A stretch of DNA of 64,000 nucleotides from Candidatus Omnitrophota bacterium (GTDB taxonomy: Bacteria > Omnitrophota > Gorgyraeia > Zapsychrales > Zapsychraceae). How positions within the stretch are numbered: position 1 is the stretch's first letter; the number at the start of each line of letters is the position of its first letter. Of this stretch, positions 7,474 through 58,870 are shown in pieces. The position numbers and the translations under genes were made by a program. The stretch covers positions 39,682 to 103,681 of the forward strand of contig JAJDCB010000023.1 in the NCBI GenBank assembly GCA_029261065.1, written 5' to 3'. Below the pieces are notes generated by a model. The model had not been told where the DNA came from and searched no databases. It saw only the letters and a program-made list of their open reading frames with translations.

Positions 7474-7477
7474 TAAT

Positions 7478-10912: not shown

Positions 10913-10934
10913 TGAGGGTAGTGGTAGAAATAAT

Positions 10935-13566: not shown

Positions 13567-13603
13567 AAGTTGAAGTTTAAGAATAAAAAGAAAGGATTAT
13601 GAT

Positions 13604-38757: not shown

Positions 38758-38901
38758 TTAAGGGCTTTTGATAAGGAGCCTAACGTGTTAAACCAAATGA
38801 AATTTAATTGTCGGATGAGAATTAGAAAGGAAGAGAACTGTCTCTTCCTTTTTTTTATTTTGATAGAGAGATTGAAAATGTTGATAAACGGAGGATTTAA
38901 G

Positions 38902-40979: not shown

Positions 40980-43900
40980 ATGAAGACATCGCAGTTAACT
41001 TTAATATTATTATTAGGTTTTGTGATGTCTTCTTTTTTGGGGTGTGATCAATTTCGTCCTCAGGAAAAGGGTCTGGTTATTGTTGATCCAAATTCAGAAG
41101 CAGTTGTTGTTGATGAGCAGGGAGATGAAATTGAAAGTGATTATGTTGATATTGTCGAAACGGTTAAGTCTTCAGAAACTGTTATCTTAAGAGATAACAA
41201 AATATTTACCAAAAATTCAAAGAAAAAATTTATTGAGAAAGATGCATCTCCCGCCATACCTGCAACAAAACAAGGTAACGTTAATAATTTAGAAGACGCT
41301 ATTAAAGAAGATCGTGTACCCACAACAAATTTTCAGTCTAAAGATACGCCTAAAGTTAAAAAAGTCGTTCATGAAAAAAGCATCGATCTCTGCAGTGATC
41401 AAGGATATATCTCCTCAGCCGAATGCCGCCTTTGTAGCGATATTCCAGGAGCTATTTGCAGTGAGACGATTAAATTATCTCATGGGGAGCAATGTTTTGA
41501 ATGTGCCACTCAACAAAAAACTTGCCGAGATTTAGGTTTTTTAAGTAAACGAGAATGTAAGAAATGTAATAAAAATGATGCGACAGAATGTGTATTTAAG
41601 GTAGAGGCGGACAACGGAAAATCTTGTTTTGAATGTGTGGATCGTGCCATCAAGTGTAAAGATTTAGGATTGATGAATTTGGATGAATGCACTTCGTGTG
41701 ACAAAGATCCTAAAATGGAATGCATTGCTGATCAGTTAACTGAGGAAGGGGTTAAGTGTTTTAATTGTGTCATTAAGCCTCAAAAATGTTCACAGCTTGG
41801 TCTCATTGATTTGCCTGGATGCCGTACGTGTCAGGAAGATCCCACAAAAGAATGTAAATCATCTAAGAAAACAAATTATGGGCAACAGTGTTATCAGTGT
41901 TTTGATAAAGAACAGAGTTGCGCGGAAATTAATCAATTAGATGTCTCAGAATGCTCAGGGTGTTTATCTCAGGCAGGTAAGGAATGTATAAAAACAGATA
42001 AAACCAAAGAAGGGTTGCAGTGTTATGGCTGTCAGGATCGTCATGAGTCTTGTGCGCATATAGGTTTGTTAAGCCAAGAGCAATGTGAGTCGTGTGACGC
42101 TAGTGAAAAGACACGCTGTGTTGCTGGACGTCAGACATTACAAGGTGAGTCTTGTTTTTCTTGTGTTAAAAAATCAAAAGATTGTCATGGGCTAGGTTAC
42201 CTTAGTCAAGAAGATTGCAGTATATGTGCTCAAAATCCACAAAAAGAGTGTCAGGCGGAGAGTCAAACAAAAGATGGCGAACAATGTTTCGTTTGTCAGG
42301 ATAAACCACAGCAATGTCAGGATTTGGGATTATTGGTGTCTAATCAATGTGAAGAATGTCAAAAGGATCCTACTAAAGAATGTGTGACCGCATTAAACAC
42401 GCAAGAAGGGCAACCATGTTTTGTTTGTCAGGATAAACCGCAACAGTGTCACGACATCGGTCAATTAGCGTTAGATATGTGTTCTGTTTGTTCGAAAGAT
42501 CCCAATAAGTTATGTTTACCAGGTGATAAAACCGAAGAGGGTGTCCAGTGTTATAACTGTGTCGATAGGCCGCAAGAGTGCAGTGATTTTAATCAACTAA
42601 AATTAGATGAATGTTTATTGTGCGAACAGGACGACAGTAAAAGATGTGTGGCGTATGACAAAACAGAAGAAGAGGTTCAGTGCTTTTTATGTGAGGATAA
42701 ACCGCAAGAGTGTAAAGATTTAGGGTTGTTAGCTCAAGATCAATGTGATTTATGTCAGCAAAATTCAAAGAAGGAATGTAGGGTTGATCAGGTTACAAAT
42801 AGCGGTGTGCAATGTTATTCATGCGCGGATAAACCACAGGAATGTCGGGATCTAGGATTGTTTAGTGAAGATGAATGTGGTTTGTGCGAAGAGAATCCAA
42901 AAAAACAATGTCAGATTGATAAACAAACGAAGGAAGGTGTGTCGTGTTTCATCTGTAAAGATAAGCCAAAGGATTGTTTAGACATTGGGTTATTAAATGA
43001 AGAGGGTTGTCAGATGTGTGAGGGGAATGAACGCAAGGACTGCCAAAAGGATGTTCTTACCGATGCCGGTGTGCAGTGTTATACATGTCAAGATAAGCCA
43101 CAAACTTGTGAAGACTTAGGCTTACTTAATCATGAAGGATGTGGGCGTTGTCAAGAAGATGAAAATACAGAATGTATTTTAGAGGCAAAAACAAATCAAG
43201 GGCAAGGTTGTTATTTGTGTGTAGAAAAATTGCAAGATTGTCAGCAGATTGATCAAATCGATTTATCAGAATGTGCGTCGTGTGAAAAAGATGTAAAAAA
43301 AGAATGCCAGATTGGTCAAAAGACAAAGCAAGGCAAACAATGTTATGAATGTGGAGAGAAGGCGCAAGAATGTCTGGATATAAATTTACTAAGTCTTGAT
43401 GAGTGTTTGGCCTGTGAGAAAGAAGATAATAAAATTTGTCAGCATAAAGATAAAACGAAGGAAGGGGTTCAATGTTATAGCTGTGAAGAGAAACCGCAAA
43501 CGTGTGTAGATTTAGGGTTAATAACGGAAGATGCCTGTGAAGTATGTAATCAGAATACAAGAACAGAATGTCAAGTAGATCAGATGACAAAAGAAGGAGT
43601 GTCTTGTTATTCTTGTCAGCAAAAACCTCAAGAGTGTCGAGATTTAGGGTTGTTTAGTTTGGATGAATGCGCCTCTTGTGAAGAAAATATGCGCAAACAG
43701 TGTCAAGAAGATCAGAAAACAGAAGGTGGGACACAATGTTACATTTGTCAGGACAAACCGCAAGCGTGTCATGACATAGGACTATTGGGAATAGATGAAT
43801 GTCAGCGCTGTGAAAGTCAATCTAATAAAATTTGTCAAGTGGATATCCTTACTGAGACCGGTACGCAATGCTTTACGTGTCAAGATAAGCCGCAAGAATG

Positions 43901-46900
43901 TGAAGACTTGGGGCTTCTTAAACAAGCACAATGTGAAACATGTCAGCGTGATGCGAATAAGGAATGCATGTTAACCGAGAAGACGAATCAAGGCGAGCAA
44001 TGTTTTGTGTGTGTTGAGAAGCCCCAAGATTGTTCACAGCTAAACCAGGTGAGTTTGGAAGAGTGTCAAACATGTAATGCCGATCCTGACAAAGAGTGTC
44101 GCGTAGGTAATAAAACGAAAGAGGGAACGCAATGTTATGAATGTGTAGATAAGCCGCAAGATTGTGCGCAGTTGGAATTGCTGAATTTAGAAGAGTGTTT
44201 TGTTTGCGAGGAAAATTCATCGAAAGAATGCGTATCAACTGTGAAAACAAAAGAAGGGATTCAGTGTTATGGTTGTCAGCAGAAAAAGGAAGAGTGTCGT
44301 GATATAGATTTATTATCAAAAGAGCAATGCGAATTTTGTGATCAGAATGCCAAGACAGAATGTCAGATGGATGCCCAAACAAAGGAGGGCAAGCAATGCT
44401 ATTCTTGTGTTCAAAAACCTCAAACGTGCCATGAGTTAGGGCTTTTTAGTCAGGATGATTGTTTAAGTTGTGAAAATAATAAACGCAAACAGTGTCAAGT
44501 TGATCAAAAGACAACGGATGGAACGCAATGTTTTATTTGTCAAGATAAGCCGCAAGAGTGTAATGATATTGGCTTATTAGATGAACCAGGATGTCAAGCC
44601 TGTGATGATAATCCAAACAAAGAATGTCAGGTAGATATTCAGACAGAAAATGGGGTGCAATGTTATACGTGTAAGGAAAAAGTTCAAGGGTGTGAACAAT
44701 TAGGATTTTTGAGCCAATCTCAATGCATGAGTTGTGAGGAAGATGGGCAGAATGAATGTGTTGGTAGTGATAAGACAGCGACTGGAGATCAATGTTATGT
44801 TTGTGTTGAAAAACCGCAATCGTGTGTGGAGCTTGATCAAGTTGGTTTGGAAGAATGTCAATCATGCGAAGCTGAAGATGGCAAAGAGTGCCATGTTGGT
44901 AACAAAACCAAAGAAGGACGACAATGTTATGTATGTGCTGATAAACCTCAAGAGTGTCACGACTTGGATTTAATTAATTTGGATGAATGTTTATCGTGTG
45001 AAGAAGATAGCAACATGAAATGTAACAGTAAAGGAAAAACGCAAGGTGGTATCCAGTGTTACGCCTGTGAAGAAAAGAAACAAGAGTGTCGTGATTTAGG
45101 ATTTTTAGCTTCAGATCAATGTGAGTTTTGTAATAAAAATGATAAAACGGAATGTCAAGAAAGTGAAAAAACAAAAAGTGGTGAGTTATGTTTCAGTTGT
45201 GTCATGAAACCTCAAACATGTCACGGTCTTGGGTTGTTTAGTTTAGATGATTGTCAAACATGCGAAAGTAATCCGCGTAAACAATGCCAGGCTGATCAAA
45301 TGACGGATGATGGATCCCAATGTTATATATGTCAAGATAAGCCGCAAAACTGTCGAGATATTGGACTGTTAGGCGAGGATGGATGTCAATTATGTGAGAA
45401 AAATAATAAGACATGTCAGGAAGATATATTAACGGAATCGGGCGTTCAGTGTTTTAGTTGTAAAGATAAACGAATGACGTGTGATGATTTGGGGCTACTT
45501 GGCCAATCTGATTGTAAAACGTGTGAGCATGATGCGAATAAGGAATGCATGCTATCCGAAAAAACGAACGATGGCGAACAATGTTTTGTCTGTGCCGAGA
45601 AGCCCCAAGATTGTTCTCAGTTAGATCAGATTAATTTGAGAGACTGTCAATCCTGTGAAAGCGACTCCTCGAAAGAATGTCGTGTTGGTAATAAGACGAA
45701 AGAAGGACGGCAGTGTTATGGATGTGTTGATAAACCACAAGAATGCGCGCAATTAGAACAGATAACGTTAGATGAATGTTTATCCTGCGAAGAAGATCCC
45801 AATAAAAAATGTATGACAAAAGATAAAACGCGTGAGGGCGTGCAATGCTACGCGTGTGAAGATAAGAAAAAAGAATGTCGAGATTTAGGCTTATTCTCCG
45901 AGGAACAATGTTCTTTCTGCCAACAGAATTCAAACACGGAATGTCAAGCTGTTGAAACAACACCTGATTCATTAACATGTTTCTCTTGTGTAGAAAAACC
46001 ACAAACGTGTCATGGTCTGGGTCTTTATAACCAAGAAAATTGTCAGAAGTGTGAAAGTAATCCACGTAAACAATGTCAGGCGGATCAAAAGACAAAAAGT
46101 GGAGAGCCGTGTTTTATTTGTCAGGATAAACCGCTTGAGTGTGAGGATATAGGTCTTCTAGATGAAGAGGGGTGTCGCGTTTGCCAAGATGGTTTGGGTA
46201 AGGTTTGTCAAAAAGATATTCTAACTGAGAATGGCGTGCAATGTTTTACTTGCGAAGAAAAACCGCAAGAGTGTCCGGATTTAGGTCTGTTAAGTTCAGA
46301 GGGATGTGCAGAGTGTCAAAACGATTTAACCAAGGATTGTTTACTAGCTCAGAAAACAAATCAAGGAGAAGAATGTTTCTTATGTGTGGATAAACCTCAA
46401 ACATGCCAAGGCATTGGTCAATTAAATTTAGACGAATGTCAAACGTGTGAATCAGATGGAACTAAAGAATGTTTGGCAGGAAATAAGACAAAAGAATCTC
46501 GTCAGTGTTACACATGTGAAGATAAAGCACAAACGTGTGAAAGTATAGATTTGATCAATTTAGATGAATGTCAAAATTGTGATGAACAGCCAAACATGGC
46601 CTGCAAAACGTCTCAGAGAACAAAGGAAGGGCGTCAATGTTATTCATGTGAAGAACGGGCTCCAGAGTGTCTAGACTTTGGGCTCTTATCACAAGAACAA
46701 TGTCAGCAATGTAATCAGAATCCATCCACGGAATGTCGAAAAGAAAAGAGTATGACATCAGGAGAAGGATGTTATGCCTGTGTGGATAAACCACAAGAAT
46801 GTCAGGACATTGGACTACTTAATCAAGAAGATTGTTCGCAATGTGAAAAAGATAAGCGAAAAGAATGTCGAGCTGATCAAACAACAAAAGAAGGCGTTCA

Positions 46901-47738
46901 ATGTTTTGTTTGTCAAAAGAAGCCAAAACAATGTGGAGATATTGGATTACTTGCGAAAGATCAATGTGTTCAGTGTGAAAAGAATGGAAGAAAGCAATGT
47001 CAGCAAGATTCGAAAACAAAATCAGGTGAGCAATGTTATGTGTGTGAAGATCGGCCTGAGGCGTGTGACGATTTAGGTTTGATTAATGACAAGCAATGTA
47101 AAACATGTGAAAGCAATCCAAAGGCCAAATGTGTGGCCACAGCTAAGACGAATAATTCTGATCAGTGCTTTAGATGTGTGATGCAAGAACAACAGTGTTC
47201 TGATATTGGACTCTCTGATTTATCAGAATGTTCAGCTTGTGAGAGTGATTCTAATAAACAATGTTTGGCTGCAAAAAAGACTGATAGTGGTATTCAATGT
47301 TATTCTTGTCAAGAGAAACCGAAGGGTTGTGCGAGTCTTTCACAACTAAGTTTGGCGGAATGTAATTCTTGTGAGACCGATGATAATAAGACATGTCAAC
47401 AAGCCAAGAAAACAGCCGATGGGGAGCAGTGTTATTCTTGTGAAGATAAACCACAACAACAACCAAGCCAGGCTTGCACAGATATTGGTCAGTCCAGTTT
47501 TGAACATTGTAAAGATTCATGTCCCGGGGAATGTTTGGAGGCTAGCTCCACAAAAAGTGCTGAACAATGTTACCGCTGTAAGGTTCCATTAGGAGCTCGA
47601 GAATGTCTGGATTATGAATATTTTCAAGATTGTAATTCTTGTACAGCAGATGAAAAATGTGCCAAGACAGGGTTGAGGTTGTTTGAAGGTAGTGGGCGTG
47701 GCGTTCCTTTAACCTGTTATACTTGCCGCCCGAAGTAA
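40980..47738 (+). CDS. giant cysteine-rich tandem-module lipoprotein (no recognised family)
   Basis: 2252 aa; TGGAG RBS; signal peptide with lipobox FLGC. About 45 tandem 44-aa modules with invariant spacing C-x2-C-x6-C-x10-C-x2-C-x7-C and core [DE]KPQxCxDLGLL. Very rich in K/E/D/Q; about 270 Cys in total. Confidence 0.8.
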   Translation: MKTSQLTLILLLGFVMSSFLGCDQFRPQEKGLVIVDPNSEAVVVDEQGDEIESDYVDIVETVKSSETVILRDNKIFTKNSKKKFIEKDASPAIPATKQGNVNNLEDAIKEDRVPTTNFQSKDTPKVKKVVHEKSIDLCSDQGYISSAECRLCSDIPGAICSETIKLSHGEQCFECATQQKTCRDLGFLSKRECKKCNKNDATECVFKVEADNGKSCFECVDRAIKCKDLGLMNLDECTSCDKDPKMECIADQLTEEGVKCFNCVIKPQKCSQLGLIDLPGCRTCQEDPTKECKSSKKTNYGQQCYQCFDKEQSCAEINQLDVSECSGCLSQAGKECIKTDKTKEGLQCYGCQDRHESCAHIGLLSQEQCESCDASEKTRCVAGRQTLQGESCFSCVKKSKDCHGLGYLSQEDCSICAQNPQKECQAESQTKDGEQCFVCQDKPQQCQDLGLLVSNQCEECQKDPTKECVTALNTQEGQPCFVCQDKPQQCHDIGQLALDMCSVCSKDPNKLCLPGDKTEEGVQCYNCVDRPQECSDFNQLKLDECLLCEQDDSKRCVAYDKTEEEVQCFLCEDKPQECKDLGLLAQDQCDLCQQNSKKECRVDQVTNSGVQCYSCADKPQECRDLGLFSEDECGLCEENPKKQCQIDKQTKEGVSCFICKDKPKDCLDIGLLNEEGCQMCEGNERKDCQKDVLTDAGVQCYTCQDKPQTCEDLGLLNHEGCGRCQEDENTECILEAKTNQGQGCYLCVEKLQDCQQIDQIDLSECASCEKDVKKECQIGQKTKQGKQCYECGEKAQECLDINLLSLDECLACEKEDNKICQHKDKTKEGVQCYSCEEKPQTCVDLGLITEDACEVCNQNTRTECQVDQMTKEGVSCYSCQQKPQECRDLGLFSLDECASCEENMRKQCQEDQKTEGGTQCYICQDKPQACHDIGLLGIDECQRCESQSNKICQVDILTETGTQCFTCQDKPQECEDLGLLKQAQCETCQRDANKECMLTEKTNQGEQCFVCVEKPQDCSQLNQVSLEECQTCNADPDKECRVGNKTKEGTQCYECVDKPQDCAQLELLNLEECFVCEENSSKECVSTVKTKEGIQCYGCQQKKEECRDIDLLSKEQCEFCDQNAKTECQMDAQTKEGKQCYSCVQKPQTCHELGLFSQDDCLSCENNKRKQCQVDQKTTDGTQCFICQDKPQECNDIGLLDEPGCQACDDNPNKECQVDIQTENGVQCYTCKEKVQGCEQLGFLSQSQCMSCEEDGQNECVGSDKTATGDQCYVCVEKPQSCVELDQVGLEECQSCEAEDGKECHVGNKTKEGRQCYVCADKPQECHDLDLINLDECLSCEEDSNMKCNSKGKTQGGIQCYACEEKKQECRDLGFLASDQCEFCNKNDKTECQESEKTKSGELCFSCVMKPQTCHGLGLFSLDDCQTCESNPRKQCQADQMTDDGSQCYICQDKPQNCRDIGLLGEDGCQLCEKNNKTCQEDILTESGVQCFSCKDKRMTCDDLGLLGQSDCKTCEHDANKECMLSEKTNDGEQCFVCAEKPQDCSQLDQINLRDCQSCESDSSKECRVGNKTKEGRQCYGCVDKPQECAQLEQITLDECLSCEEDPNKKCMTKDKTREGVQCYACEDKKKECRDLGLFSEEQCSFCQQNSNTECQAVETTPDSLTCFSCVEKPQTCHGLGLYNQENCQKCESNPRKQCQADQKTKSGEPCFICQDKPLECEDIGLLDEEGCRVCQDGLGKVCQKDILTENGVQCFTCEEKPQECPDLGLLSSEGCAECQNDLTKDCLLAQKTNQGEECFLCVDKPQTCQGIGQLNLDECQTCESDGTKECLAGNKTKESRQCYTCEDKAQTCESIDLINLDECQNCDEQPNMACKTSQRTKEGRQCYSCEERAPECLDFGLLSQEQCQQCNQNPSTECRKEKSMTSGEGCYACVDKPQECQDIGLLNQEDCSQCEKDKRKECRADQTTKEGVQCFVCQKKPKQCGDIGLLAKDQCVQCEKNGRKQCQQDSKTKSGEQCYVCEDRPEACDDLGLINDKQCKTCESNPKAKCVATAKTNNSDQCFRCVMQEQQCSDIGLSDLSECSACESDSNKQCLAAKKTDSGIQCYSCQEKPKGCASLSQLSLAECNSCETDDNKTCQQAKKTADGEQCYSCEDKPQQQPSQACTDIGQSSFEHCKDSCPGECLEASSTKSAEQCYRCKVPLGARECLDYEYFQDCNSCTADEKCAKTGLRLFEGSGRGVPLTCYTCRPK
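41470..47490 (+). repeat. Intragenic tandem repeat: 132-bp unit (one 129-bp copy) with a higher-order super-repeat of 6 units (792 bp)
   Basis: Protein periodicity read directly. Antisense stop-free artefact ORFs at 43126 and 43918 are exactly 792 bp apart. Comparable modules 12 units apart (e.g. 43930-44040 vs 45510-45620) look about 80-85% identical by eye. Confidence 0.75.
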
Positions 47739-48575: not shown

Positions 48576-48745
48576 TGTCATTCCCGAGGCATCGGGAATC
48601 AAATGGATTCCGGCTCTTCGGCCGGAATGACATAAGAGTACTTGTCAGAATGACACGAGAGTATTTGTCGGAATGACACAAAAACACCTGTCATTCCCGA
48701 GACATCGGGAATCTATTAGGTTCTGGATCTTCGGCTGAAATGATC
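48576..48745. repeat. Cluster of four or more GC-rich nested palindromic repeat units (TGTCATTCCCGAGGCATCGGGAATC; GGATTCCGGCTCTTCGGCCGGAATGACA; direct repeats ...TTGTCRGAATGACA...; TGTCATTCCCGAGACATCGGGAATCTATTAGG)
   Basis: Read directly in the 260-bp spacer between the YkgJ-like gene and cmoA. Confidence 0.75.
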
Positions 48746-48768
48746 AACATGAGTAGTAAGGAGTAGTA

Positions 48769-49578: not shown

Positions 49579-50541
49579 TTGAAACCACCTTTTCAAATTA
49601 CAAAAGAAATCCATAATCTCTGTTTAGAGATATCTCGTTTAATAGTCCAATATGAAGGTTTAAGCCTACCAGCTCCTCAACTTGAGTTGAGAAAGCATGC
49701 AAAAATTCTTACGATTCAATCTAGTCTTGCTATTGAGGGCAACACGTTAACGATAAATCAGGTAACGGACATTATTAATAATAAAAAAATTGTTGGCCCT
49801 AAGAAGGATATATTAGAGGTTAAGAATGCTATAAAAGTTTATGATATTCTCAATAAATATGATTCCCAAGATTTAGATTCCCTTCTTGGGGCGCATAAAA
49901 TTCTCATGAGTGGTTTAATCAAAGATGCAGGGAAGCTGAGAAAGAATAATGTGGGTGTTAGAGCGGGGGATACTATTGTTCATATGGCTCCACCTTATAA
50001 GGTTGTCCCTGAGCTAATGAAGAAGCTTTTTCAATTTCTAAAAGTGGAGAAGGATTTAGATCCTCTTATTCGATCAAGTATTTTTCATTATGAATTTGAA
50101 TTTATTCATCCCTTTATGGATGGAAATGGTAGAATCGGTCGCTTGTGGCAATCTGTTATTCTTTATGATCATTCTAAAATTTTTGAGTATATCCCTATAG
50201 AGACCATTATTAAGCGTCGGCAAATGGAATATTATGAAGCCTTGCAAGCATCCACTAAAGAAGGGGCTTCGACGTTGTTTATTAAATTTATGCTTGAGGC
50301 GATTAAAGAAGCAACCGTTCAATTTACAAAAGATATTAAACCAGTACATCAAACAGCTGAAATGAGATTGAAGATGGCTCATGCTCATTTTGGGAATAGA
50401 TTGTTTAATCGAAAAGAATATTTAGCATTACATCATAATATTTCTCCTACAAGTGCAACACGAGATTTGTCTTTTGCAGCTGAGAGAAATATTCTCAAAA
50501 GGGTAGGAAAATTAAGTACAACCAAATACCATTTTTTATAA
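49579..50541 (+). CDS. Fic/DOC family protein (probable AMPylator)
   Basis: Fic motif HPFMDGNGRIGR; TTG start after GTGAGGA. Confidence 0.85.
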   Translation: MKPPFQITKEIHNLCLEISRLIVQYEGLSLPAPQLELRKHAKILTIQSSLAIEGNTLTINQVTDIINNKKIVGPKKDILEVKNAIKVYDILNKYDSQDLDSLLGAHKILMSGLIKDAGKLRKNNVGVRAGDTIVHMAPPYKVVPELMKKLFQFLKVEKDLDPLIRSSIFHYEFEFIHPFMDGNGRIGRLWQSVILYDHSKIFEYIPIETIIKRRQMEYYEALQASTKEGASTLFIKFMLEAIKEATVQFTKDIKPVHQTAEMRLKMAHAHFGNRLFNRKEYLALHHNISPTSATRDLSFAAERNILKRVGKLSTTKYHFL

Positions 50542-50615: not shown

Positions 50616-53600
50616 ATGAGCACTTCACCAAATACTCAATTCCAATTTCCTGAAGTTCGTGTTGTGGAGGCATCCGCAGGCTCGGGCAAGACCTATGCGT
50701 TGTCCAAGCAATACATCCAGCTTTTATTAAATCCTAAACTATTGTTTGATCATGTTCCGATGCGTAATATCTTGGCGCTTACCTTTACCAACAAAGCCGC
50801 TTTTGAAATGAAAAGGCGTATTATTCAATTTTTAAAGATTATTGCTTTTAAACAGTTAACCAAAGATCAAGAAGAGGATGTTTTAGGATCCATTGGTATT
50901 AATCGTGAAGAGGCTAGTAAAAAAGCCTTTACGATTATGGAGGCGTTGATTAATAATTATAATTTCTTTCAAGTTCAAACCATTGATAAATTTATCAACG
51001 CGCTTCTTTCGGGTTGTGCTTTTAAAATTGGACTCACCGCTAATTTTCGCATCAAAACAAACTCCAAAGACTATTTAGAGTACAGTCTTGATCAACTCAT
51101 TGATCAAGCCTTGCGGGATAAAGACACGCTTAAACTTCTTCAAGAATTTCTGCACCATTATTTATATCTAGAAAATCGTCTTGGTTGGTTTCCTAAGAAG
51201 GATATGTTAGAGATTGTTAAAGCCTTGTTTATGCAAAATAACACGTATGGTCTGATGTTTGAAGAGACGGAATATTCGTCTCAAGATATTATTAAGAAGA
51301 AGAGATTGATTTTAGATGAGATGAGAAACTTAAAGAGTATCATGCCAGAAGGTGCGGATCTAAGGTTTGTGAAAGCTTTTGATAAATTTTTATTGGATCG
51401 TGAAAAGGGTTTTGATATTGATAGTATTTCGGATTATTTTAAAAGAGAAGTCTTTCCAGCTAAGAAGAATGTTGAGGTGTCACGCGCTGTTGAAAAATCT
51501 TGGGATAAGATTCACAAGAGTTTAAAACAGTTATGCGAAGAAGAAGCCTTTTCTTTGTTTAATCCTTATATTCAGATTTATGATCAGGTTAAAGGGATTT
51601 TTTTAGAACGTGCAGCCCGTGATGATGTTTTATTCTTAGAGGAATTAAATAAACGAGCGGGAGCTTTGTTTGATGATGATTATGTGACCGTTGAAGAGCT
51701 GTATTATCGATTGGCCACACGATTTCATCATTATTTGATTGATGAGTTTCAAGATACGAGTGCCCTTCAGTGGCATAATTTAGAGAAGATGGCAGAAGAG
51801 GCTTTATCCACGGGTGGTTCGTTATTTTATGTAGGAGATCGCAAGCAAGCGATTTATGGATTCCGAGGAGGAAATGTCGCGTTATTTGATCAGATAAAGA
51901 TGAGATTTAAAAGTTTTAATGTTCAAATTGCTCAGCTGACGAATAATTGGCGCAGTCAGAAAAGTGTTGTCGAATTTAATAATGCTGTTTTTGGGATGGA
52001 AAACTTAAAACATTTTATTGAACAAAAACAGGCGCGTGAGATAAGTAAGAAGAAAAAAAATCCTGTGGTCTTTTACGATGATGATTTTCTAGAGCTTCAA
52101 AATATCTTTGGGAGTTCTCAGCAATCCCATCAGCCAAAGAATGATAAAGGTTTTGTTTATATCCAAAAAATTGAGGCTGCAAAAAAGGAAGATCGCGACG
52201 AAATTATAAGAGAACATGTGCTTGAGCTTGTTGATGCTTTGCGTAAGCGGTTTTCTTTTTCGGATATTGCTTTTTTAACACGAAGTAATTATGAGGTCGA
52301 GCAGCTTACCAATTGGTTGCTTGAAGAGAAAATTCCAGTCGAGTCAGAGCGAACATCAAATATTAAAGAAAATGTTCTTATCGCTGAGATCGTCTCTTTC
52401 TTAAAGTTTCTTCACTCTCCTATTGATAATATCGCGTTTGCGGATTTTATTTTGGGCGACATTTTCACAAAGGCAACGGGCCTTTCTAAGACAACGATTC
52501 AAGAGTTTGTCTTTTTGTTAAGAGCGCGAACATCAAAGGAACGTGATTTTTATATTTATACAGAATTTCGAAAACAGTTCCCTGAGGTTTGGGATAAGTA
52601 TATTGAAAGTTCTTTTGCGAATGTTGGTCTGTATCCTCTGTATGAATTGGCGATTAGTTTTTATAGTCTCTATGACTGCCTAAATCTTTTTCCTGAGTTT
52701 CAAGGGTACTTAATGCATTTTTTAGAAATCATTAAGAATCAAGAGGAAGAGCATTCTGATATTGAATCTTTTTTAGAATATTATGATGAGCTTATTGGGG
52801 AGGCGTTGTATGTGCATGTGACAGACACCGATGCCATCAAAATTCTTACAGTGCATAAATCTAAAGGGCTTGAGTTCCCCGTCGTCATTATTCCCTTTCT
52901 AGGGATGGATGTTCAAGTCGGTGTTTCTCAAGAACAACAAATGTCTTATATCCTTCAAGAACATGAAAATTCTTTACAGTTATTGAGACTTAAGGGTAAG
53001 TATTTAGGGTTCTCAGAGAAGTTGTATGAGATTTATGCGAAAGAATATAAAAAGGCATTTATATCCGAGTTAAATAATATTTATGTCGCCATGACGCGTG
53101 CCCAACATGAATTGTATGCCTTTATCCCCGAAAAAATTGGTCAGAGTTTTAATTTGGCCCAACTGTTGATTCCAGAAGATGTTTATCAATGTGGTCAACC
53201 TCACATTTATGAAAAGTCCAAAGCTAAGTCAATGGCGGTTAAGAGATTAAGCGCCTCTTCTTATCAAGATTGGATTCATTTTTTGAACGATGAATTTTTA
53301 GATGAGGATCAGATCCATAATAGGCAAAAGAAGCTTGGGGGTGAAGTTGTTCATAGTATGTTGTCTTTTATTGGGAATCTTGCTCACGAAGATAAAGAAT
53401 TGGCCCTGGAACAAGCCTATAGTCATGCTCAAATGAATTTTCCTTTTGTCGATCATTTGGACGCTTATCTAAAAAAAGTGAAACAACTTCTTAACAATAA
53501 ACGTTTTGAGTCCATCTTTTCTGATAAAGATGCGCAAGTGTTTACGGAAAAAGAAATTGTTAACGCGTTTGGGCATAGTAAAAGGATTGATCGGCTGATT

Positions 53601-53810
53601 GTTAAGACAAGTGAGGTTTGGATTGTTGATTATAAATCGTCGCAAGATGAGGGCGGTGATTATGAAAAACAAGTGGGAGAATATATGGCTTTGGTTGATA
53701 AGTTGTATCCTCAGCATGAGATCAAAGGATTTATTGTTTACTTAGATGATTTACATATGCAAGAAGTGAAATCAATCAGCACTGTCATTACTGAGACATC
53801 AGGAATCTAA
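50616..53810 (+). CDS. AddA-like UvrD-family helicase with C-terminal PD-(D/E)xK nuclease
   Basis: 1064 aa. Walker A ASAGSGKTYAL; motif II LIDEFQDTS; motif III YVGDRKQAIYGFRGG; motif IV NWRSQ. C-terminal nuclease IVDYKSS...E.YM. The last 9 codons plus the stop lie in a repeat-family unit. Confidence 0.8.
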   Translation: MSTSPNTQFQFPEVRVVEASAGSGKTYALSKQYIQLLLNPKLLFDHVPMRNILALTFTNKAAFEMKRRIIQFLKIIAFKQLTKDQEEDVLGSIGINREEASKKAFTIMEALINNYNFFQVQTIDKFINALLSGCAFKIGLTANFRIKTNSKDYLEYSLDQLIDQALRDKDTLKLLQEFLHHYLYLENRLGWFPKKDMLEIVKALFMQNNTYGLMFEETEYSSQDIIKKKRLILDEMRNLKSIMPEGADLRFVKAFDKFLLDREKGFDIDSISDYFKREVFPAKKNVEVSRAVEKSWDKIHKSLKQLCEEEAFSLFNPYIQIYDQVKGIFLERAARDDVLFLEELNKRAGALFDDDYVTVEELYYRLATRFHHYLIDEFQDTSALQWHNLEKMAEEALSTGGSLFYVGDRKQAIYGFRGGNVALFDQIKMRFKSFNVQIAQLTNNWRSQKSVVEFNNAVFGMENLKHFIEQKQAREISKKKKNPVVFYDDDFLELQNIFGSSQQSHQPKNDKGFVYIQKIEAAKKEDRDEIIREHVLELVDALRKRFSFSDIAFLTRSNYEVEQLTNWLLEEKIPVESERTSNIKENVLIAEIVSFLKFLHSPIDNIAFADFILGDIFTKATGLSKTTIQEFVFLLRARTSKERDFYIYTEFRKQFPEVWDKYIESSFANVGLYPLYELAISFYSLYDCLNLFPEFQGYLMHFLEIIKNQEEEHSDIESFLEYYDELIGEALYVHVTDTDAIKILTVHKSKGLEFPVVIIPFLGMDVQVGVSQEQQMSYILQEHENSLQLLRLKGKYLGFSEKLYEIYAKEYKKAFISELNNIYVAMTRAQHELYAFIPEKIGQSFNLAQLLIPEDVYQCGQPHIYEKSKAKSMAVKRLSASSYQDWIHFLNDEFLDEDQIHNRQKKLGGEVVHSMLSFIGNLAHEDKELALEQAYSHAQMNFPFVDHLDAYLKKVKQLLNNKRFESIFSDKDAQVFTEKEIVNAFGHSKRIDRLIVKTSEVWIVDYKSSQDEGGDYEKQVGEYMALVDKLYPQHEIKGFIVYLDDLHMQEVKSISTVITETSGI

Positions 53811-53903
53811 TGGATTCCCGATGTCTCGGGAATGACAGGCTCCGGTTTGTCATTCCCGCGAAGGCGGGAATCTAATGGTTTTCCCCCGTCATGGGGGAAT
53901 GAT
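53791..53903. repeat. Three GC-rich palindromic repeat units (CTGTCATTACTGAGACATCAGGAATCTAATGG; GGATTCCCGATGTCTCGGGAATGACA; TGTCATTCCCGCGAAGGCGGGAATCTAATGG; TTCCCCCGTCATGGGGGAA)
   Basis: Read directly; the first unit supplies the C-terminal codons TVITETSGI and the stop of the AddA-like ORF. Confidence 0.75.
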
Positions 53904-53928
53904 AGATATAAAAATTAAATGGTGATAA

Positions 53929-56724
53929 ATGTCTAACATCAAAACTTATAGTTTCTGTGACAGTTATATCGACCGGCTTGTTGATTATATAGAGAAAGAG
54001 TATGTCGCCAAAAACGCTGATTTAAGTCGCTTAGCGATTTGTTTTGGTGGAAAAAGGCCAGCCCTTTTTGTTAAAAGGGAGTTAGCTCGAAGACTAAAAG
54101 TAGATTATTTCCCACCGCGTTTTTTTACCATCGATGAATTAGTACGTACGATCGTTAATCGCAAAGAACCGATGAGCCAAGGCATTGATTTGGATCATTG
54201 TTATTTGATTTATAATCTCGCCAAAGAGCATACCCCTAAAATCCTTTTAGGGCGGGAGACGTTTGCTCAATTTTTACCTTGGACCCGCGAAATATTGGGG
54301 TTTATTGATCAGCTTGATCTTGAAAATATTGATGAGAAAAAGATTTTAAACATTCAAGAGAACGCTGAAATTGGCTATGCCGTTCCTGATGACATTAATC
54401 ATTTATTAGAAAACATCCTCGTGCTTCGAAAAGTTTATCATGAATCTTTATTGAAGAATAAACACATGTCGCGAGGACTACAGTATTTATTGGCTGGAGA
54501 ATACATCAAAGATGTTTCCTTTGATGAATATGATCATTTTTTATTTTGCAATTTTTTCTATTTCAATGCCTCAGAAGAAGCCATTGTCAAAACGCTACAT
54601 CAACGTAATCAAGCGACGTTATTGTTTCAGGGCGATCAACGCAAATGGCCTGTTTTACAGCGTATATCCCAAAGATTTAAAGCTGACATTCTTGAAGGAA
54701 AAGAACCTGAACCGACGAAATTTGATTTAAAACTCTACGCGGGATTTGATGCGCATTCTCAAGTCTCTTTGGTTCGCGAAATACTTAAAACTTGCGAGAC
54801 GCTTGACAACACGGTTGTTGTTCTCCCCAATCCTGATCACATCGTTGTCCTTTTATCAGAAATAACGGCCCTCCTTAAAGAGTTTAATATCTCCATGGGA
54901 TATCCTCTGAAACGAAGCAGCCTTTATACGCTATTTGAATTTATTTTTAAGGCCCAGAGCACGCGAAAAGAAAACCGTTTTTATGCTAAAGATTATTTAA
55001 AGGTGTTACGCCATCCCTTTGTTAAGAATTTAAAGTTATCACCTAACCCTACAATCACACGCATTTTGGTTCATAAGTTAGAGGAGATTCTTACAGGAAA
55101 AGAGCGGGCGTCTATTTCGGGGAGTTTATTTTTAGATTTAGAGGATGTTGTTACTTGTGATGAGCTTTACATGATTACGCTCGAAGTCTTAGATCGTTTG
55201 GGTATTACAACGGATAGAAGAGAGATTCAAACGGTGTTAGAAAAATTGCATGATCTTGTTTTTGAAAGTTGGGGGCGTGTGACAACGTTTAAAAACTTTT
55301 CCGCCGTTCTTGAGCGATTCCTTGATGTTTTGATTCAAAAAAGTTTCTTAAAAAATTATCCTTTAAATATTAATATTGCAACCAAGATGTATGAGATAAA
55401 GGATGAATTTCTTAACGCGTCTTTTAGTGAAGAAGATTTTCCTCAAGAAGATATCTTTAAAATTTTTGATAGCAAGGTCTCACGTGAAATTGTGGCCTTT
55501 ATTGGTTCGCCGCTAAAAGGTCTACAGATGTTAGGGCTTTTTGAAACGCGTTCCCTTAATTTTGAGAATGTCATTATCTTGGATGTCAATGAAGGGGCCT
55601 TACCACGATTAAACATTTATGAACCTCTCATTCCTCGTGAGGTTATGATTAGTTTGAATTTAGATCGTTTAGAATTGGAAGAAGAAATTCAGCGGTATCA
55701 ATTTATGAGACTTATTTCTTCAGCTAAGAATGTGCATCTTGTTTATCAAGAAAGAAAAGATAAAGAACGTTCTCGTTTTATTGAGGAGCTTATTTGGGAA
55801 GATGAAAAGAAGGCCGGCGCGATTCAAGAACCGGAGGTAACGCATGCTAACTTTGAAGTGAAAGTTCAGCCGCAAAAAAAAGTTGTTAAAAAAACACCGC
55901 AAATGATTGAAGCGTTACGTAATCATAAATATTCGGCTTCAAGCATCAACACCTATTTACGAAATCCCATGGATTTTTATCGTAGTTATGTGTTGGGTCT
56001 AAAAGAGCAGGATGATCTGCTTGATGAACCTGATGCGCGCCATGTTGGAACGTTTATGCATGGGTTGTTGGAACATAGTTTTGCGCCATATCTTAAGAAG
56101 AAACCGGTCGTTGATAGTAAGTTTCGTACTCGTGTCACAAAACTCTTTGAACAACGTTTCGATGATACCTTTGGCAAAGCGATGAAGACAGATTCAATCT
56201 TGCTGAAATCTGTCATCGCCGAACGCTTAAATCGTTTTTTAGATAATGAAGAAAAATCCGCTAGTCGCCAGATTGAAGAAATTCTATACTTAGAACATCG
56301 CTTTGAAAACACGATTGCACTATCCTGCGGAGATATTCGTTTTGGTTATATTGTCGATCGTGTTGATAAGTTAAAAGATGGCACGATCATGATCCTCGAT
56401 TATAAAACGGGTAATACTAATCTTATGCCTCGAGCCATAGACCGGATTGCCACAATGGAGATGAGTCGCGAAAACATTCGCAATCACATCAAATCCTTTC
56501 AAATCCCTCTTTATTTTAATTACTTGCACGAACAATTCAAAGATAAGCCCATCAATGCGGCTTTATATAATCTAAGAACATTAGAAGTTAGCCCCTTTCT
56601 TGATAAAAAAATGACTTATTCCAGAGAGTACATTAATGACACATTTCTTAAGTCTTTGGATTATATTCTCAGCGAGATTCTTAATCCCGAGCAGGATTTT
56701 GAAGAAGATGAGGCGTTTCGATAA
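53929..56724 (+). CDS. AddB-like PD-(D/E)xK nuclease subunit
   Basis: 931 aa, immediately downstream of the AddA-like gene. C-terminal RecB-type nuclease motif IMILDYKTGN with downstream acidic residues and a Q.P.Y segment. Confidence 0.7.
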   Translation: MSNIKTYSFCDSYIDRLVDYIEKEYVAKNADLSRLAICFGGKRPALFVKRELARRLKVDYFPPRFFTIDELVRTIVNRKEPMSQGIDLDHCYLIYNLAKEHTPKILLGRETFAQFLPWTREILGFIDQLDLENIDEKKILNIQENAEIGYAVPDDINHLLENILVLRKVYHESLLKNKHMSRGLQYLLAGEYIKDVSFDEYDHFLFCNFFYFNASEEAIVKTLHQRNQATLLFQGDQRKWPVLQRISQRFKADILEGKEPEPTKFDLKLYAGFDAHSQVSLVREILKTCETLDNTVVVLPNPDHIVVLLSEITALLKEFNISMGYPLKRSSLYTLFEFIFKAQSTRKENRFYAKDYLKVLRHPFVKNLKLSPNPTITRILVHKLEEILTGKERASISGSLFLDLEDVVTCDELYMITLEVLDRLGITTDRREIQTVLEKLHDLVFESWGRVTTFKNFSAVLERFLDVLIQKSFLKNYPLNINIATKMYEIKDEFLNASFSEEDFPQEDIFKIFDSKVSREIVAFIGSPLKGLQMLGLFETRSLNFENVIILDVNEGALPRLNIYEPLIPREVMISLNLDRLELEEEIQRYQFMRLISSAKNVHLVYQERKDKERSRFIEELIWEDEKKAGAIQEPEVTHANFEVKVQPQKKVVKKTPQMIEALRNHKYSASSINTYLRNPMDFYRSYVLGLKEQDDLLDEPDARHVGTFMHGLLEHSFAPYLKKKPVVDSKFRTRVTKLFEQRFDDTFGKAMKTDSILLKSVIAERLNRFLDNEEKSASRQIEEILYLEHRFENTIALSCGDIRFGYIVDRVDKLKDGTIMILDYKTGNTNLMPRAIDRIATMEMSRENIRNHIKSFQIPLYFNYLHEQFKDKPINAALYNLRTLEVSPFLDKKMTYSREYINDTFLKSLDYILSEILNPEQDFEEDEAFR

Positions 56725-57266: not shown

Positions 57267-58751
57267 ATGAAGAAAATTTCTAACATCATTTTTTATGGGC
57301 TGATTGTTTTGTTTTTGTATGTTCAGCTAACAACTATCAAAGCAGGTCATAGTTGGGGAGGAGATTTTAGTCAGTATATTCAGCATGCGAAAAATCTGAT
57401 TGAATTAAAACCTTATCATCAAGGCATTATGCTTGATGAGTGGGTGAATAACCCTGTTGGTTTTCCTTTGATGTTAGCGCCTTGGATTAAGGTTTTTGGT
57501 GTTAATTTTAAAGTTTTAAAAATTATCAATGTGCTTAGCTGGTTGTTTTTTGTTCTGTTTTTAAGAGCCTTAGCCAAAAAACGTTTGGATGATCCTTTAG
57601 CGGATCTGTTAAGTATTTGTCTTTTAACCTCACCTTTTTTCTTCACATTTAAACAAAATATCATTAGTGATGTCCCTTTCTTAAGTTTGCTTACTTGTTC
57701 CCTTTTTTTATGTCATCATTTTTTTACCACAAAGAAACATTCCTTTGCATTTTTGTGTCTTCTAGCGATTAGTTTGAGTTTTACCTTACTTATTCGTTGG
57801 GCAGGACTAACGCTATTTGCTTCGGTCATTTTGTATTTGTTGATCAATGCCTATGACAAGAAATATGTCGTGGCAACGATGTTGATTCTAGGTTTAACAA
57901 TCTTTGTTCAATCTTTAGCCGGTATCAATTTGGGTCACCATCTTCAAGAGGGACCTCAGGGGTGGGTGGCTTGGAGTCATCAGTCTTACCAATTGATGTC
58001 TTATAATCTTAATAATTTTTTTATATTTTTTGTGCCTTCCTTTAAAGGGGTGGTTTTATCTCGCGGTGTCACGTTTTTGTTTACAGATATCGTGACTCCC
58101 ATCATATTTTTTGGTAGCATTCTATTTTTATTATTGAGAATGATGAAAAAGAAAGCGGATATTCTAGAATATTTTTTATTAGTTTATTTGTGCGCCTTGT
58201 TGATTTGGCCTCTGCAGGGAGGGGTAAGATATGTTTTACCGATTGTTGGTGTTTGTTTGATTTTGATGATCCAGGGCGTTGTCGTTGGTTTGCAAAAGCA
58301 AGATCCGAAAGCATGGGTTGTTAAGGGATTGTGTTTATTGTTAATCATGAGCAATGGTGTTCACATCTATAAAAATTATTCATTTAACGATGATGTGATT
58401 GCTCAACCCGATACACAAGAGTTGATTGCTTGGATCAAAGAGACAACACAGCCAGAGGATCATTTCATGTTTCAGCGACCGCGTACTCTTACTTTAATAA
58501 CAGATCGAAAATTTGCGCCATTTTTTATTTATAGTCAGGATGCGGCTAAGTGGTATCAACGTATTGAACGGTTTAACATCCGTTATCTTCTCGCCTTTAA
58601 TTCCTCCGTTCATAAAATGCTTTCAAGTTTTCCTCCGGATTATATACAATTGCGACAGGTGTGGCAGAATGAGAAGTATGTAGTTTTGGAAGTGGTTGAG
58701 ATAAAAGGTCGTGATGTCATTCCTGCGGAAGTGGGGAATTCAAAAAAGTAA
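57267..58751 (+). CDS. polytopic GT-C/PMT_2-like membrane protein immediately downstream of the pilin (possible pilin glycosyltransferase)
   Basis: 494 aa with about 11 TM helices. N-terminal loop AGHSWGGDFSQYIQHAKNL...PVGFPLML. The placement resembles pilA-tfpW-type arrangements (inference). Confidence 0.4.
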   Translation: MKKISNIIFYGLIVLFLYVQLTTIKAGHSWGGDFSQYIQHAKNLIELKPYHQGIMLDEWVNNPVGFPLMLAPWIKVFGVNFKVLKIINVLSWLFFVLFLRALAKKRLDDPLADLLSICLLTSPFFFTFKQNIISDVPFLSLLTCSLFLCHHFFTTKKHSFAFLCLLAISLSFTLLIRWAGLTLFASVILYLLINAYDKKYVVATMLILGLTIFVQSLAGINLGHHLQEGPQGWVAWSHQSYQLMSYNLNNFFIFFVPSFKGVVLSRGVTFLFTDIVTPIIFFGSILFLLLRMMKKKADILEYFLLVYLCALLIWPLQGGVRYVLPIVGVCLILMIQGVVVGLQKQDPKAWVVKGLCLLLIMSNGVHIYKNYSFNDDVIAQPDTQELIAWIKETTQPEDHFMFQRPRTLTLITDRKFAPFFIYSQDAAKWYQRIERFNIRYLLAFNSSVHKMLSSFPPDYIQLRQVWQNEKYVVLEVVEIKGRDVIPAEVGNSKK

Positions 58752-58796
58752 ATAATGTTATCTTTGTGTAAGTTGGAAGCTCGAAAAATTAATCTC

Positions 58797-58870
58797 TGTC
58801 ATCCCCGCGAAAGCGGGGATCTCGAAGGTGTTATAATTATGAATAGTTCCCCGCTTTCGCGAGGATGACA
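58797..58870. repeat. Two GC-rich palindromic repeat units (TGTCATCCCCGCGAAAGCGGGGATC ... TTCCCCGCTTTCGCGAGGATGACA)
   Basis: Read directly between convergent gene ends. Confidence 0.7.

Follow-up and report, generated by a model that had tools for sequence, protein, structure and literature searches.

The final codons and the stop codon of an addA-like gene in the 64-kb stretch of DNA analysed here (the window), which comes from a probable Omnitrophota genome, are encoded by a short hairpin repeat of a known and widespread family, the hairpins to which Ssn single-strand nucleases bind. We think it likely that doublets of Ssn-related motifs (SRMs), derived from a hairpin/GIY-YIG/hairpin cassette, landed at the addA-addB junction, where the first of them supplies the tail and the stop of addA. 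The repeat-encoded end of the gene is an ordinary side-effect of the spread of a selfish repeat.

The gene concerned (50616-53810, plus strand) encodes an AddA/RecB-like helicase-nuclease of 1064 residues, with UvrD-helicase, UvrD_C and PDDEXK_1 domains identified with Pfam. Its best NCBIfam match is the RecB-like helicase PRK13909. As the NCBIfam equivalog cut-offs are missed (356.6 against 650 bits), we regard the protein as a divergent AddA/RecB-like member. It has the UvrD-type helicase domains, the C-terminal PD-(D/E)XK nuclease pattern D..D-x-K..Q..Y and the adjacent AddB-like partner of an AddA. That partner (53929-56724, plus strand) is a PD-(D/E)XK protein of 931 residues whose start, MSNIKTYSFC, agrees with the starts of its orthologues. 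The nuclease motif had been thought intact in the preliminary description, and D992, D1005, K1007, Q1019 and Y1023 are indeed invariant columns in an alignment of 36 orthologues, this protein included. When contigs were searched with the AddA alignment, the matches listed were mostly distant Bacteroidota-type RecB-like genes, two Omnitrophota among them. The orthologues of the gene point to the Omnitrophota, against a Coxiella/Legionella-type origin that the repeat sequence by itself had suggested.

The repeat that ends the gene, element 1 (53783-53837), is a 55-nt palindromic doublet of two facing SRM/NTS-like half-units, recognised both as an inverted repeat and in our half-unit catalogue. 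It reads TGTCATTaCtGAGACATCaGGAATC, TAATG, GATTCCCGATGTCTCGGGAATGACA. The arms are 26 nt long with 88% complementarity, and the whole is predicted to fold as one long hairpin (-23.6 kcal/mol as DNA, z = -9.3), with RNA folding alike. The left half-unit (53783-53807, plus strand) is translated in the addA frame as (T)VITETSGI, from the GTC at 53784 to the ATC at 53805. It differs from its partner arm by three substitutions, and one C>T/G>A change pair in it, as read from the sequence, preserves the pairing of the small hairpin. The linker TAATG (53808-53812, plus strand) contains the present addA stop, TAA 53808-53810, which is the 3' flank of the half-unit (C-T-A-A) and the counterpart of the published NTS CYRG flank; the overlapping ATG at 53810-53812 starts a mini-ORF of 21 codons. 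The right half-unit (53813-53837, minus strand) is identical at all 25 positions to another copy in the window, 48689-48713, with which the left arm shares 22 of 25.

Element 1 thus spans both the terminal codons and the stop of ORF 50616-53810, as the preliminary description had claimed. About nine repeat-encoded codons (TVITETSGI) had been counted in addition to the TAA; the stop stands, and the number of full codons falls to eight (VITETSGI) because the element gives the threonine codon its third base only. The copy used there for comparison, placed at 48697, actually lies at 48688-48720, and the span of the feature, given as 53791-53903, is slightly wider, at 53783-53904.

The wider span takes in a second doublet, element 2 (53848-53904), an inverted repeat of 57 nt belonging to families D1 and D12. 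It is separated from element 1 by a 10-nt spacer, GGCTCCGGTT (53838-53847), which is probably native sequence from before the insertion. Its left half-unit (53848-53872, plus strand) extends into a stretch, 53848-53875, that agrees with the NTS consensus as published (CGTCATTCCCGCGMAVGCGGGAATCYRG) in 26 of its 28 positions, both mismatches being terminal. A second TAATG linker (53873-53877) leads to a diverged right half-unit (53878-53904, minus strand). Together the two elements occupy the gap ahead of the AddB-like gene, immediately before which GGTGATAA (53921-53928, plus strand) contains GGTGA, a putative Shine-Dalgarno-like sequence for addB.

RNA from the junction is predicted to fold at -73.2 kcal/mol (z = -8 against shuffles). 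A fold so much better than that of shuffled sequence could mean that the hairpins are functional: by attenuation, by RNase III processing or by an effect on mRNA stability they would set how much AddA is made relative to AddB, and a TAATG stop-start relay would preserve coupling. REP/BIME hairpins act as mRNA stabilisers and attenuators, and the relay chain is exact: addA is followed by the 21-codon ORF (TAA/ATG 53808-53812), a 16-codon ORF (TAA/ATG 53873-53877) and addB, with the TGA at 53923 sitting 3 nt before addB. However, the phasing required arises by chance about once in three at each step, stops occur in all three frames within about 20 nt of addB regardless, and the TAATG chain is missing in a parallel case described below (L123). 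Nor is an intrinsic terminator predicted between addA and addB, because a T-run is missing after either hairpin; no terminator-like site was called there. We consider a regulatory function quite improbable. It is the operon that is mainly affected: a 118-nt gap with very stable hairpins now parts two genes whose translation is coupled in the relatives.

Which part of AddA was altered can be read from the orthologues. Homology with them stops at about residue 1051 (QEV). A short native tail, KSIST (1052-1056), comes next, and the repeat then encodes residues 1057-1064, with every codon, and the TAA, inside element 1. Most orthologues end 0-4 residues past the ..EEV motif. The same C-terminal peptide in orthologues from repeat-free relatives would have spoken against an origin in the repeat, as the preliminary description recognised, and VITETSGI is absent from the ends of all 119 AddA orthologues aligned. 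The expectation that orthologues would reveal replaced ancestral residues held for the variable tail only: as homology ends at about residue 1051, no conserved residue has been replaced. Because the change to the AddA protein reaches neither the helicase nor the nuclease domain, it is most likely neutral.

The long junction is derived. In five relatives addA and addB are spaced by -4, -4, +1, +12 and +17 nt. Here the spacing is +118 nt, of which the repeat block fills 94 nt; its two elements total 112 nt. Under every model of excision in silico, the addA frame stops 3-22 nt short of the addB ATG and yields a protein 1057-1065 residues long. With both elements removed, the stop met by the addA frame is TGA 53923-53925, inside GGTGATAA.

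It seems probable that the two doublets arrived in tandem at this normally tight junction and that the first interrupted addA in its 3' tail, which is not conserved. The addA frame now continues into the left arm for eight codons and ends at the TAA that this arm supplies with its 3' flank. Before the insertion the tail probably reached the TGA at 53923, 3 nt ahead of addB, and insertion into the coding tail predicts an element-free addA reading ..KSISTAPVDIKIKW*. As the closest relative found has 61% identity, and the empty site was not seen, we infer insertion into the coding tail, and likewise the order in which the elements inserted. The earlier statement that the repeat had inserted into the gene and re-terminated it fits the spacing and the excision results, with insertion into the coding tail as its conditional part.

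The elements might instead have inserted in the spacer past an older addA stop, for example at what is now TCA 53772-53774 (..QEVK*), with a point mutation later losing that stop. The nearest orthologues do terminate at that place (P0005 ends ..EEVK* and many others ..EEV*), and a single base change separates TCA from TAA or TGA. This history requires an extra mutational step, however, and the ancestral spacer would have measured about 42 nt, more than in any of the five uninterrupted relatives, whereas precise excision of both elements gives a frame ending TGA-TAA directly ahead of the addB ATG. We regard loss of an older stop as unlikely and prefer insertion into the coding tail.

A mis-join or collapse of the metagenome-assembled contig at the repeat, which would give addA a different true 3' end, is extremely unlikely. 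Repeats break assemblies, and copy 7493-7519 is precisely where the Logan contig L084 stops, but at the junction itself the synteny is that of the relatives (Fic-addA-addB), AddA aligns through its last conserved residue, the AddB start is normal, and an identical 1064-residue product is on record in NCBI and Logan sources alike.

The addA-addB junction carries related elements in other Omnitrophota orthologues, and these parallel cases are independent. An 87-nt doublet gives one orthologue (L123) the residues VIASETK plus a TGA, and a hairpin gives another (L124) SHPRLRGV plus a TGA. In a third (L082) a complete hairpin/GIY-YIG/hairpin cassette lies inside the junction. We considered whether the junction is a hot spot and rejected the idea, the parallel cases amounting to about 3-4 per 120 orthologues, two of them chosen for their tails. 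Only 3 of the 74 half-units surveyed end long ORFs, so overlap with a gene end happens by accident now and then and does not characterise the family.

The window contains about 15 half-units, grouped in five clusters. The core ATTCCC-N8-GGGAAT occurs exactly five times (at 7582, 48580, 48693, 53814 and 53852) and 14 times with up to two mismatches, against 2.9 +/- 1.6 in shuffled sequence, where none of 100 shuffles reached 14. One intergenic region (48576-48746) holds two more doublets of this family, at 48576-48632 and at 48689-48746, with termini-only remnants between them. Another intergenic doublet (10952-11044) has a left hairpin with a nested, GC-rich palindrome of 20 nt, and a doublet with a longer linker, of 24 nt, stands between convergent genes (58797-58870). 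Tail-to-tail half-units at 7493-7519 (minus) and 7578-7602 (plus), within 7493-7604, are upstream of, or overlap, the start of an alpha/beta-hydrolase ORF; the independent Logan assembly of SRR15505515, 100% identical to the window over positions 1-7522, breaks at a repeat copy. A parallel to the addA tail was seen within the window too, where a single half-unit (58715-58740, plus strand) encodes the tail (D)VIPAEVGN of a PMT_2-like glycosyltransferase ORF (57267-58751), its phase in that frame being the phase of the addA copy. The repeat had no match in Rfam at gathering thresholds. The Francisella sRNA FtrB scored 31.7 against a threshold of 66 bits, and we took this sub-threshold match to reflect chance or a shared hairpin repeat.

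Judged by its sequence, the repeat is an NTS-like SRM: a hairpin of about 25-28 nt whose core, ATTCCC-N8-GGGAAT, is of the dRS3 type, with TGTC conserved on the 5' side and a C on the 3' side. NTS/SRM hairpins have been tied to the SsnA GIY-YIG single-strand nucleases, and the upstream GTC, needed for cleavage, and the C after the palindrome, needed for binding, are critical NTS positions (Chenal et al., Nat Commun 2025, PMC11893778). The GTC is kept in 12 of 14 window copies and the C in 13 of 14. In the half-units the columns T-C-A-T are invariant and the 5' T and G nearly so. Covariation across 18 half-units supports the hairpin, with 91% of cells paired and changes on both sides in 17 cells, compared with 4.1 for shuffled sequence. 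Three window copies match the degenerate SRM pattern in its strict form, where 0.12 would be expected; the CCCGAG-stem subtype, which is the main one in the window, and copy 53848 miss the published pattern by one position. The half-units occur mostly as inverted doublets of 55-90 nt.

The link to a nuclease gene comes from metagenome contigs. An exact 25-mer of the repeat is present in 35 of them, and in all four contigs where inverted 25-mer pairs enclose a gene, that gene encodes a single-domain GIY-YIG protein of 95-105 residues. The family of the enclosed protein has more than 5700 members, Omnitrophica among them, and sequence searches of NCBIfam, PADLOC and the PDB gave these flanked proteins only generic GIY-YIG/UPF0213 similarity. 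A genome with NTS/SRM repeats would be expected to encode a small single-domain GIY-YIG protein (Ssn, cd10448), as a rule from a gene that the motif flanks. A tblastn search found no GIY-YIG gene in the 64-kb window. Because the identical 25-mer flanks Ssn-like GIY-YIG genes, the window doublets look like gene-less miniatures of a cassette made of a hairpin, a small GIY-YIG (Ssn-type) nuclease gene and an inverted hairpin. The Ssn model would expect an ssn gene flanked by TGTCATTCCCGAG...

The failure to find an Ssn gene in the window could also be taken to mean that the repeats are not associated with Ssn, but are either REPINs that depend on a RAYT (Y1 transposase) for their movement or classical MITEs that descend from a DDE insertion sequence. 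Inverted doublets of palindromes of about 25 nt have REPIN architecture, and the terminal inverted repeats TGTCATTCC..GGAATGACA look like MITE ends. Yet target-site duplications flank none of the six doublets examined, leaving TIR-like ends as the one classical MITE feature, and the GTAG-type head of a REP is missing. No Y1 (HUH) REP-associated transposase adjoins any repeat cluster in the window, the only gene enclosed by the exact hairpin is GIY-YIG (four of four), and the 26/28 identity with NTS includes the positions for Ssn binding and cleavage. An origin as REPINs or classical MITEs is very unlikely, and derivation from the GIY-YIG cassette is the reading that we retain.

A bolder form of the cassette reading is that the doublets are non-autonomous, MITE-like cassette derivatives that Ssn mobilises in trans, that they repeatedly colonise the addA-addB junction of Omnitrophota, and that the TAATG relay keeps the two genes coupled. 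We hold this to be unlikely. If it were true, such trans-mobilised doublets would be direct genomic evidence for a transposon-like Ssn/SRM system, which was only hypothesised in the 2025 paper (PMC11893778).

With these results the range of the Ssn-related hairpin repeats, themselves described only recently, comes to include a probable Omnitrophota genome, and tight gene-less doublets that resemble miniatures of a nuclease cassette bear on the question of Ssn/SRM mobility. In such MAGs these hairpins shape gene ends, gene starts and contig breaks. Protein-end peptides such as VIPxxxGI, VIASExK and WVPAFAGMT are repeat-derived and should not be taken as conserved motifs; a full-text literature search for repeat-derived peptides (PAFAGMT and others) returned nothing. 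AddAB itself is probably little affected in practice: its enzyme domains are intact, although the coupling of the subunit genes is disrupted.

The system closest to the window repeat is that of NTS/SRM itself. The two share the core, the 5' GTC and the 3' C, and both are multi-copy. The published architecture is NTS-ssnA-NTS (PMC11893778), and in the metagenome contigs a hairpin identical to that of the window flanks small GIY-YIG genes in inverted orientation. The differences are the host, whose phylum goes unmentioned in that paper's main text, the arrangement of the window copies as tight gene-less doublets, and the overlap with a coding 3' end, which the paper does not discuss. The dRS3 repeats and NIMEs of Neisseria have an identical 20-bp palindrome definition, ATTCCCNNNNNNNNGGGAAT, and there too inverted pairs bracket short sequences and repeats cluster beside genes. 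They belong to another phylum, however, and bracket RS elements of 50-150 bp, compared with intervening segments of 5-25 nt here, where a link to phage integration or natural transformation is not known.

The Ssn paper likens its repeats to REP/BIME/REPIN elements (PMC11893778). The window repeats resemble these in being short imperfect palindromes arranged as inverted doublets without target duplications, and in their location at operon junctions, where mRNA stability can be affected. They differ in the associated gene, a GIY-YIG nuclease instead of a Y1 (HUH) transposase, and in the head, TGTC instead of GTAG.

Rickettsia palindromic elements (RPEs), to which the preliminary description had compared the addA copy, are an imprecise analogy for an NTS/SRM (dRS3-like) unit, a 55-nt hairpin doublet at a 3' end. 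As here, palindromic repeats are tolerated as part of conserved protein-coding genes. RPEs, though, are 100-150 bp long and lie in frame inside genes, flanked on either side by native sequence, whereas the elements here are 55 and 57 nt, the ORF terminates within element 1, and it is the extreme 3' end and stop that are supplied; we saw no sequence relationship between RPEs and the window repeat. Element 2, which is 57 nt long and has one open frame, would be RPE-like only in a hypothetical intermediate.

A closer precedent is found in Coxiella burnetii, where QMITE1 and QMITE2 overlap the 3' ends of functional genes including ubiB, mutT, recN and ruvB, and where, in strain Dugway, a QMITE gives EnhC 33 C-terminal residues with a stop just downstream (Wachter et al. 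2018, PMC5896051). QMITEs belong to another repeat family, whose members have direct repeats and TIRs and for which a link to Ssn has not been reported, and 'GTCATTCC' does not occur in the text of PMC5896051. The likeness lies in small palindromic repeats lying over the 3' ends of genes, as in addA. The addA case is thus a further instance of a known phenomenon, one that other repeat families likewise produce.

The AddA/RecB-like gene (50616-53810, plus strand; 1064 aa) has UvrD-helicase, UvrD_C and PD-(D/E)XK domains, with 'RecB-like helicase' (PRK13909) as its top NCBIfam match, under the equivalog cut-off, and is followed by an ORF for an AddB-like PD-(D/E)XK protein (53929-56724). Between them lie two palindromic elements. 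Element 1 (53783-53837) is a 55-nt palindrome, TGTCATTaCtGAGACATCaGGAATC, TAATG, GATTCCCGATGTCTCGGGAATGACA, whose 26-nt arms are 88% complementary; element 2 (53848-53904; 57 nt) lies 3' of it. The final codons of addA, VITETSGI (53784-53807), and its TAA stop (53808-53810) all fall within element 1, in its left arm and linker, so a repeat does supply the end of this gene, as the preliminary description proposed. The repeat-encoded codons number eight rather than about nine, as the preceding Thr codon takes only its third base from element 1, and the copy used for comparison, placed at 48697, is at 48688-48720. The nuclease motif upstream is intact, as had been thought: D992, D1005, K1007, Q1019 and Y1023 are invariant in 36 orthologues, window protein included.

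The TAA is itself the 3' flank of the half-unit (C-T-A-A), equivalent to the CYRG of the NTS hairpin discussed below. Elements of this family are open in most frames, and in five of six doublets, read from their sequences, the AT-rich linker stops translation promptly in the V-I-P frame, so an ORF entering an element gains a short new tail. Element 2 is covered by an Rfam match to FtrB, an sRNA of Francisella, that falls below threshold (53832-53923; 31.7 bits, the gathering score being 66); FtrB may itself carry a hairpin repeat of similar kind.

The preliminary description had the element both inserting into and re-terminating addA. Re-termination follows from the position of VITETSGI and the TAA in element 1, while insertion is drawn from the C-termini of relatives, the junction spacing and excision in silico. 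That evidence is comparative because the nearest orthologues, those with names being Candidatus Omnitrophota, are at most 61% identical. In 120 aligned AddA C-termini the homologous part extends to ..YLDxLxxEEV, with most proteins stopping 0-4 residues further on; the tails are variable, up to about 20 aa, and none of the 120 resembles VITETSGI. Among the tblastn matches listed, AddA similarity also stops at residue 1051. In five relatives the two genes either overlap, by 4 nt (L081, L121), or are separated by 1 nt (L122), 12 nt (L120) or 17 nt (L083), against 118 nt in the window, 94 of them repeat block (the two elements total 112 nt). If both elements are cut out at their terminal TGTCA...TGA(C/T)A, what remains is ..QEVKSISTAPVDIKIKW, then TGA-TAA-ATG, the ATG being that of addB; alternative boundaries put the stop 17 or 22 nt upstream of addB, and the proteins range from 1057 to 1065 aa over the boundary choices. 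Read most economically, these comparisons mean that insertion struck a non-conserved addA tail within its last ~10 codons. Element 2, at 57 nt, is open in the relevant frame and, had it come first, would for a short time have been a genuine in-frame insert. It is improbable that the elements instead landed behind an older addA stop, for example after ..QEVK, that was later lost, as this requires one more step and an ancestral spacer of unusual length.

The new tail is probably neutral for the AddA protein, and the effect on the operon may be larger. The junction RNA has a predicted fold of -73 kcal/mol (z = -8), its hairpins are not predicted to form an intrinsic terminator, and the stop/start proximity seen in relatives is lost. 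The addB ATG is still preceded at 4 nt by GGTGA, kept despite the elements. Two mini-ORFs run through the elements (53810-53925), one of 21 codons (MDSRCLGNDRLRFVIPAKAGI) and then one of 16 (MVFPRHGGMIDIKIKW), the TAATG linkers forming stop-start overlaps from addA to the first and from the first to the second, whose TGA stop (53923-53925) is followed after 3 nt by the addB ATG. The chain could sustain termination-reinitiation as a translational relay or be a coincidence, and its phasing is not improbable by chance. Directly 5' of addA is a Fic-domain gene (49579-50541), and one at the same relative position in L122 indicates that the neighbourhood is conserved.

The 64-kb window has about 15 half-units, grouped into five clusters (7493-7604, 10952-11044, 48576-48746, 53783-53904 and 58715-58870), all five directly 3' of a plus-strand gene. 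The core ATTCCC-N8-GGGAAT occurs five times exactly and 14 times at two or fewer mismatches, against 2.9 expected. The right arm of element 1 matches the copy at 48689-48713 at 25/25 positions and the left arm at 22/25. With 18 half-units aligned, 91% of the 8-bp stem is paired and 17 cells are changed on both sides of the stem, against 4.1 in shuffles, with slid controls collapsing; the pairing and the double changes argue that the hairpin itself is conserved. Element 1 is predicted to fold as a single long hairpin and the other doublets as two neighbouring hairpins. Inspection of the flanking sequences found no target-site duplication at any doublet.

Several copies show further detail. In the doublet at 10952-11044 a GC-rich palindrome of 20 nt, CCCGCCTGCCGGCAGGCAGG, is nested in the loop of the left hairpin, suggesting that a second small element entered the first, and a partial unit lies just 5' (about 10934-10949). 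Two 13-nt pieces consisting of termini only, TGTCAGAATGACA and TGTCGGAATGACA, lie between two doublets (48633-48688) and look like collapsed or deleted elements. In an alpha/beta-hydrolase gene (7370-8362), with half-units near its start at 7493-7519 and 7578-7602, the likely start codon (ATG, 7592-7594) is within a repeat hairpin, CGAATGCG, in its loop, and the open frame 5' of it gives the repeat-derived peptide WVPAFAGMT. Repeats break short-read assemblies: an independent Logan contig of SRR15505515 (L084), 100% identical to 1-7522, ends 3 nt past the copy at 7493-7519.

A full-text search for ATTCCC-N8-GGGAAT, which defines the Neisseria dRS3 repeat (PMC11893778), led us to Chenal et al. 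2025 (PMC11893778), where the 28-nt NTS is defined as CGTCATTCCCGCGMAVGCGGGAATCYRG, together with a broader group of 'Ssn-related motifs' (SRM) present in many phyla. Small GIY-YIG proteins of a single domain (SsnA, 94 aa) were shown there to bind the hairpin in single-stranded form and to cut it a few nt upstream; cleavage is affected by the three bases that precede the palindrome, and binding by the C that directly follows it. The motif typically lies on both flanks of ssn genes, and an insertion-sequence analogy was raised as a hypothesis only (PMC11893778). The copy at 53848-53875 is identical to NTS at 26 of 28 positions, and the GTC 5' and C 3' of the palindrome are kept in nearly all window copies. 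Applied strictly, the published degenerate SRM pattern finds three window copies against 0.12 expected; the commonest window subtype has a CCCGAG stem, and copy 53848 misses the strict pattern at one terminal position. The window repeat agrees with NTS/SRM in sequence and structure. The gene association is found in related contigs only, the 64-kb window having no GIY-YIG gene.

A scan of metagenome contigs for the window subtype's exact 25-mer, TGTCATTCCCGAGRCATCGGGAATC, found it in 35 (L085-L119) of 30 to 65% G+C, which implies that it has spread between distant lineages or that its sequence is very strongly constrained. In four of these (L092, L113, L117, L118) an inverted pair encloses a gene, in every case for a 95-105-aa GIY-YIG protein of a family of more than 5700 sequences, Omnitrophica included. 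Elsewhere on the same contigs the hairpins form inverted doublets or arrays without a gene, like those of the window, and for this reason the window doublets look like gene-less miniatures of the hairpin/ssn/hairpin cassette. Doublet arrays occur in L092, L098 and L104.

Other genes end in similar repeats. A PMT_2-like membrane glycosyltransferase (57267-58751) ends in ..GRD-VIPAEVGNSKK, its last ~11 codons coming from a half-unit (58715-58740) translated in the same phase as that of addA (GTC ATT CCx), while its homologues end earlier, at ..YKIFKV plus 0-15 variable residues. The AddA orthologue P0093 ends in ..EEVICS-VIASETK, receiving seven codons and a TGA from an 87-nt doublet on contig L123 (3259-3345; GTGTCATTGCGAG...CTCGCAATGACAC) that fills the 79-nt gap before addB. 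The orthologue P0087 ends in SHPRLRGV, these codons and the stop coming from a GTCATCC...GTATGAC hairpin (L124, 6160-6190), a weaker case in which no long inverted repeat was called. In L082, a 60%-identical relative, a full hairpin-doublet/GIY-YIG/hairpin cassette (13165-13582) occupies the addA-addB junction; it is of another subtype (CGTCATCCTGAGCG...), and the addB start called at 13547 is probably wrong, the true start being a GTG near 13590. The hairpin subtypes differ, which makes these independent events. Repeat-affected addA cases number about 3-4 among 120 orthologues, two of them picked for suspicious-looking tails, and we do not claim the junction as a hot spot. Only three of 74 half-units in the window and the 35 contigs terminate a long ORF; the glycosyltransferase copy at 58715 is outside the 74, as an extra base escapes the search pattern.

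Elsewhere in the window, a 2252-aa ORF (40980-47738) is made up of diverged cysteine-rich repeats, dozens in number and each 132 nt (44 aa) long, of the type C..C...KPQ.C..LG, and has no Pfam match; directly 5' is a 720-aa NHL-repeat beta-propeller protein (38785-40947). GC skew is positive in all 4-kb bins of 1-64000 (0.12-0.26; G+C ~37%) and the long ORFs listed are mostly on the plus strand, consistent with the leading strand of a single replichore.

Palindromic repeats at gene 3' ends are already well documented. The small palindromic QMITE1/2 repeats of Coxiella overlap or extend gene 3' ends and give 33 C-terminal residues of EnhC (PMC5896051), and ERIC, Correia and RU elements are further examples of repeats that overlap or extend gene ends in this way. 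The window repeat differs from REPIN/RAYT systems, as its associated gene is GIY-YIG and it has no GTAG head, and from classical MITEs, whose target duplications it lacks. The likeness to Rickettsia palindromic elements first drawn for it is imprecise, since neither the size nor the mode of insertion fits. New here are the phylum of the host, the form of the repeat as a doublet or miniature cassette, and the fact that the addA-addB junction is affected recurrently.
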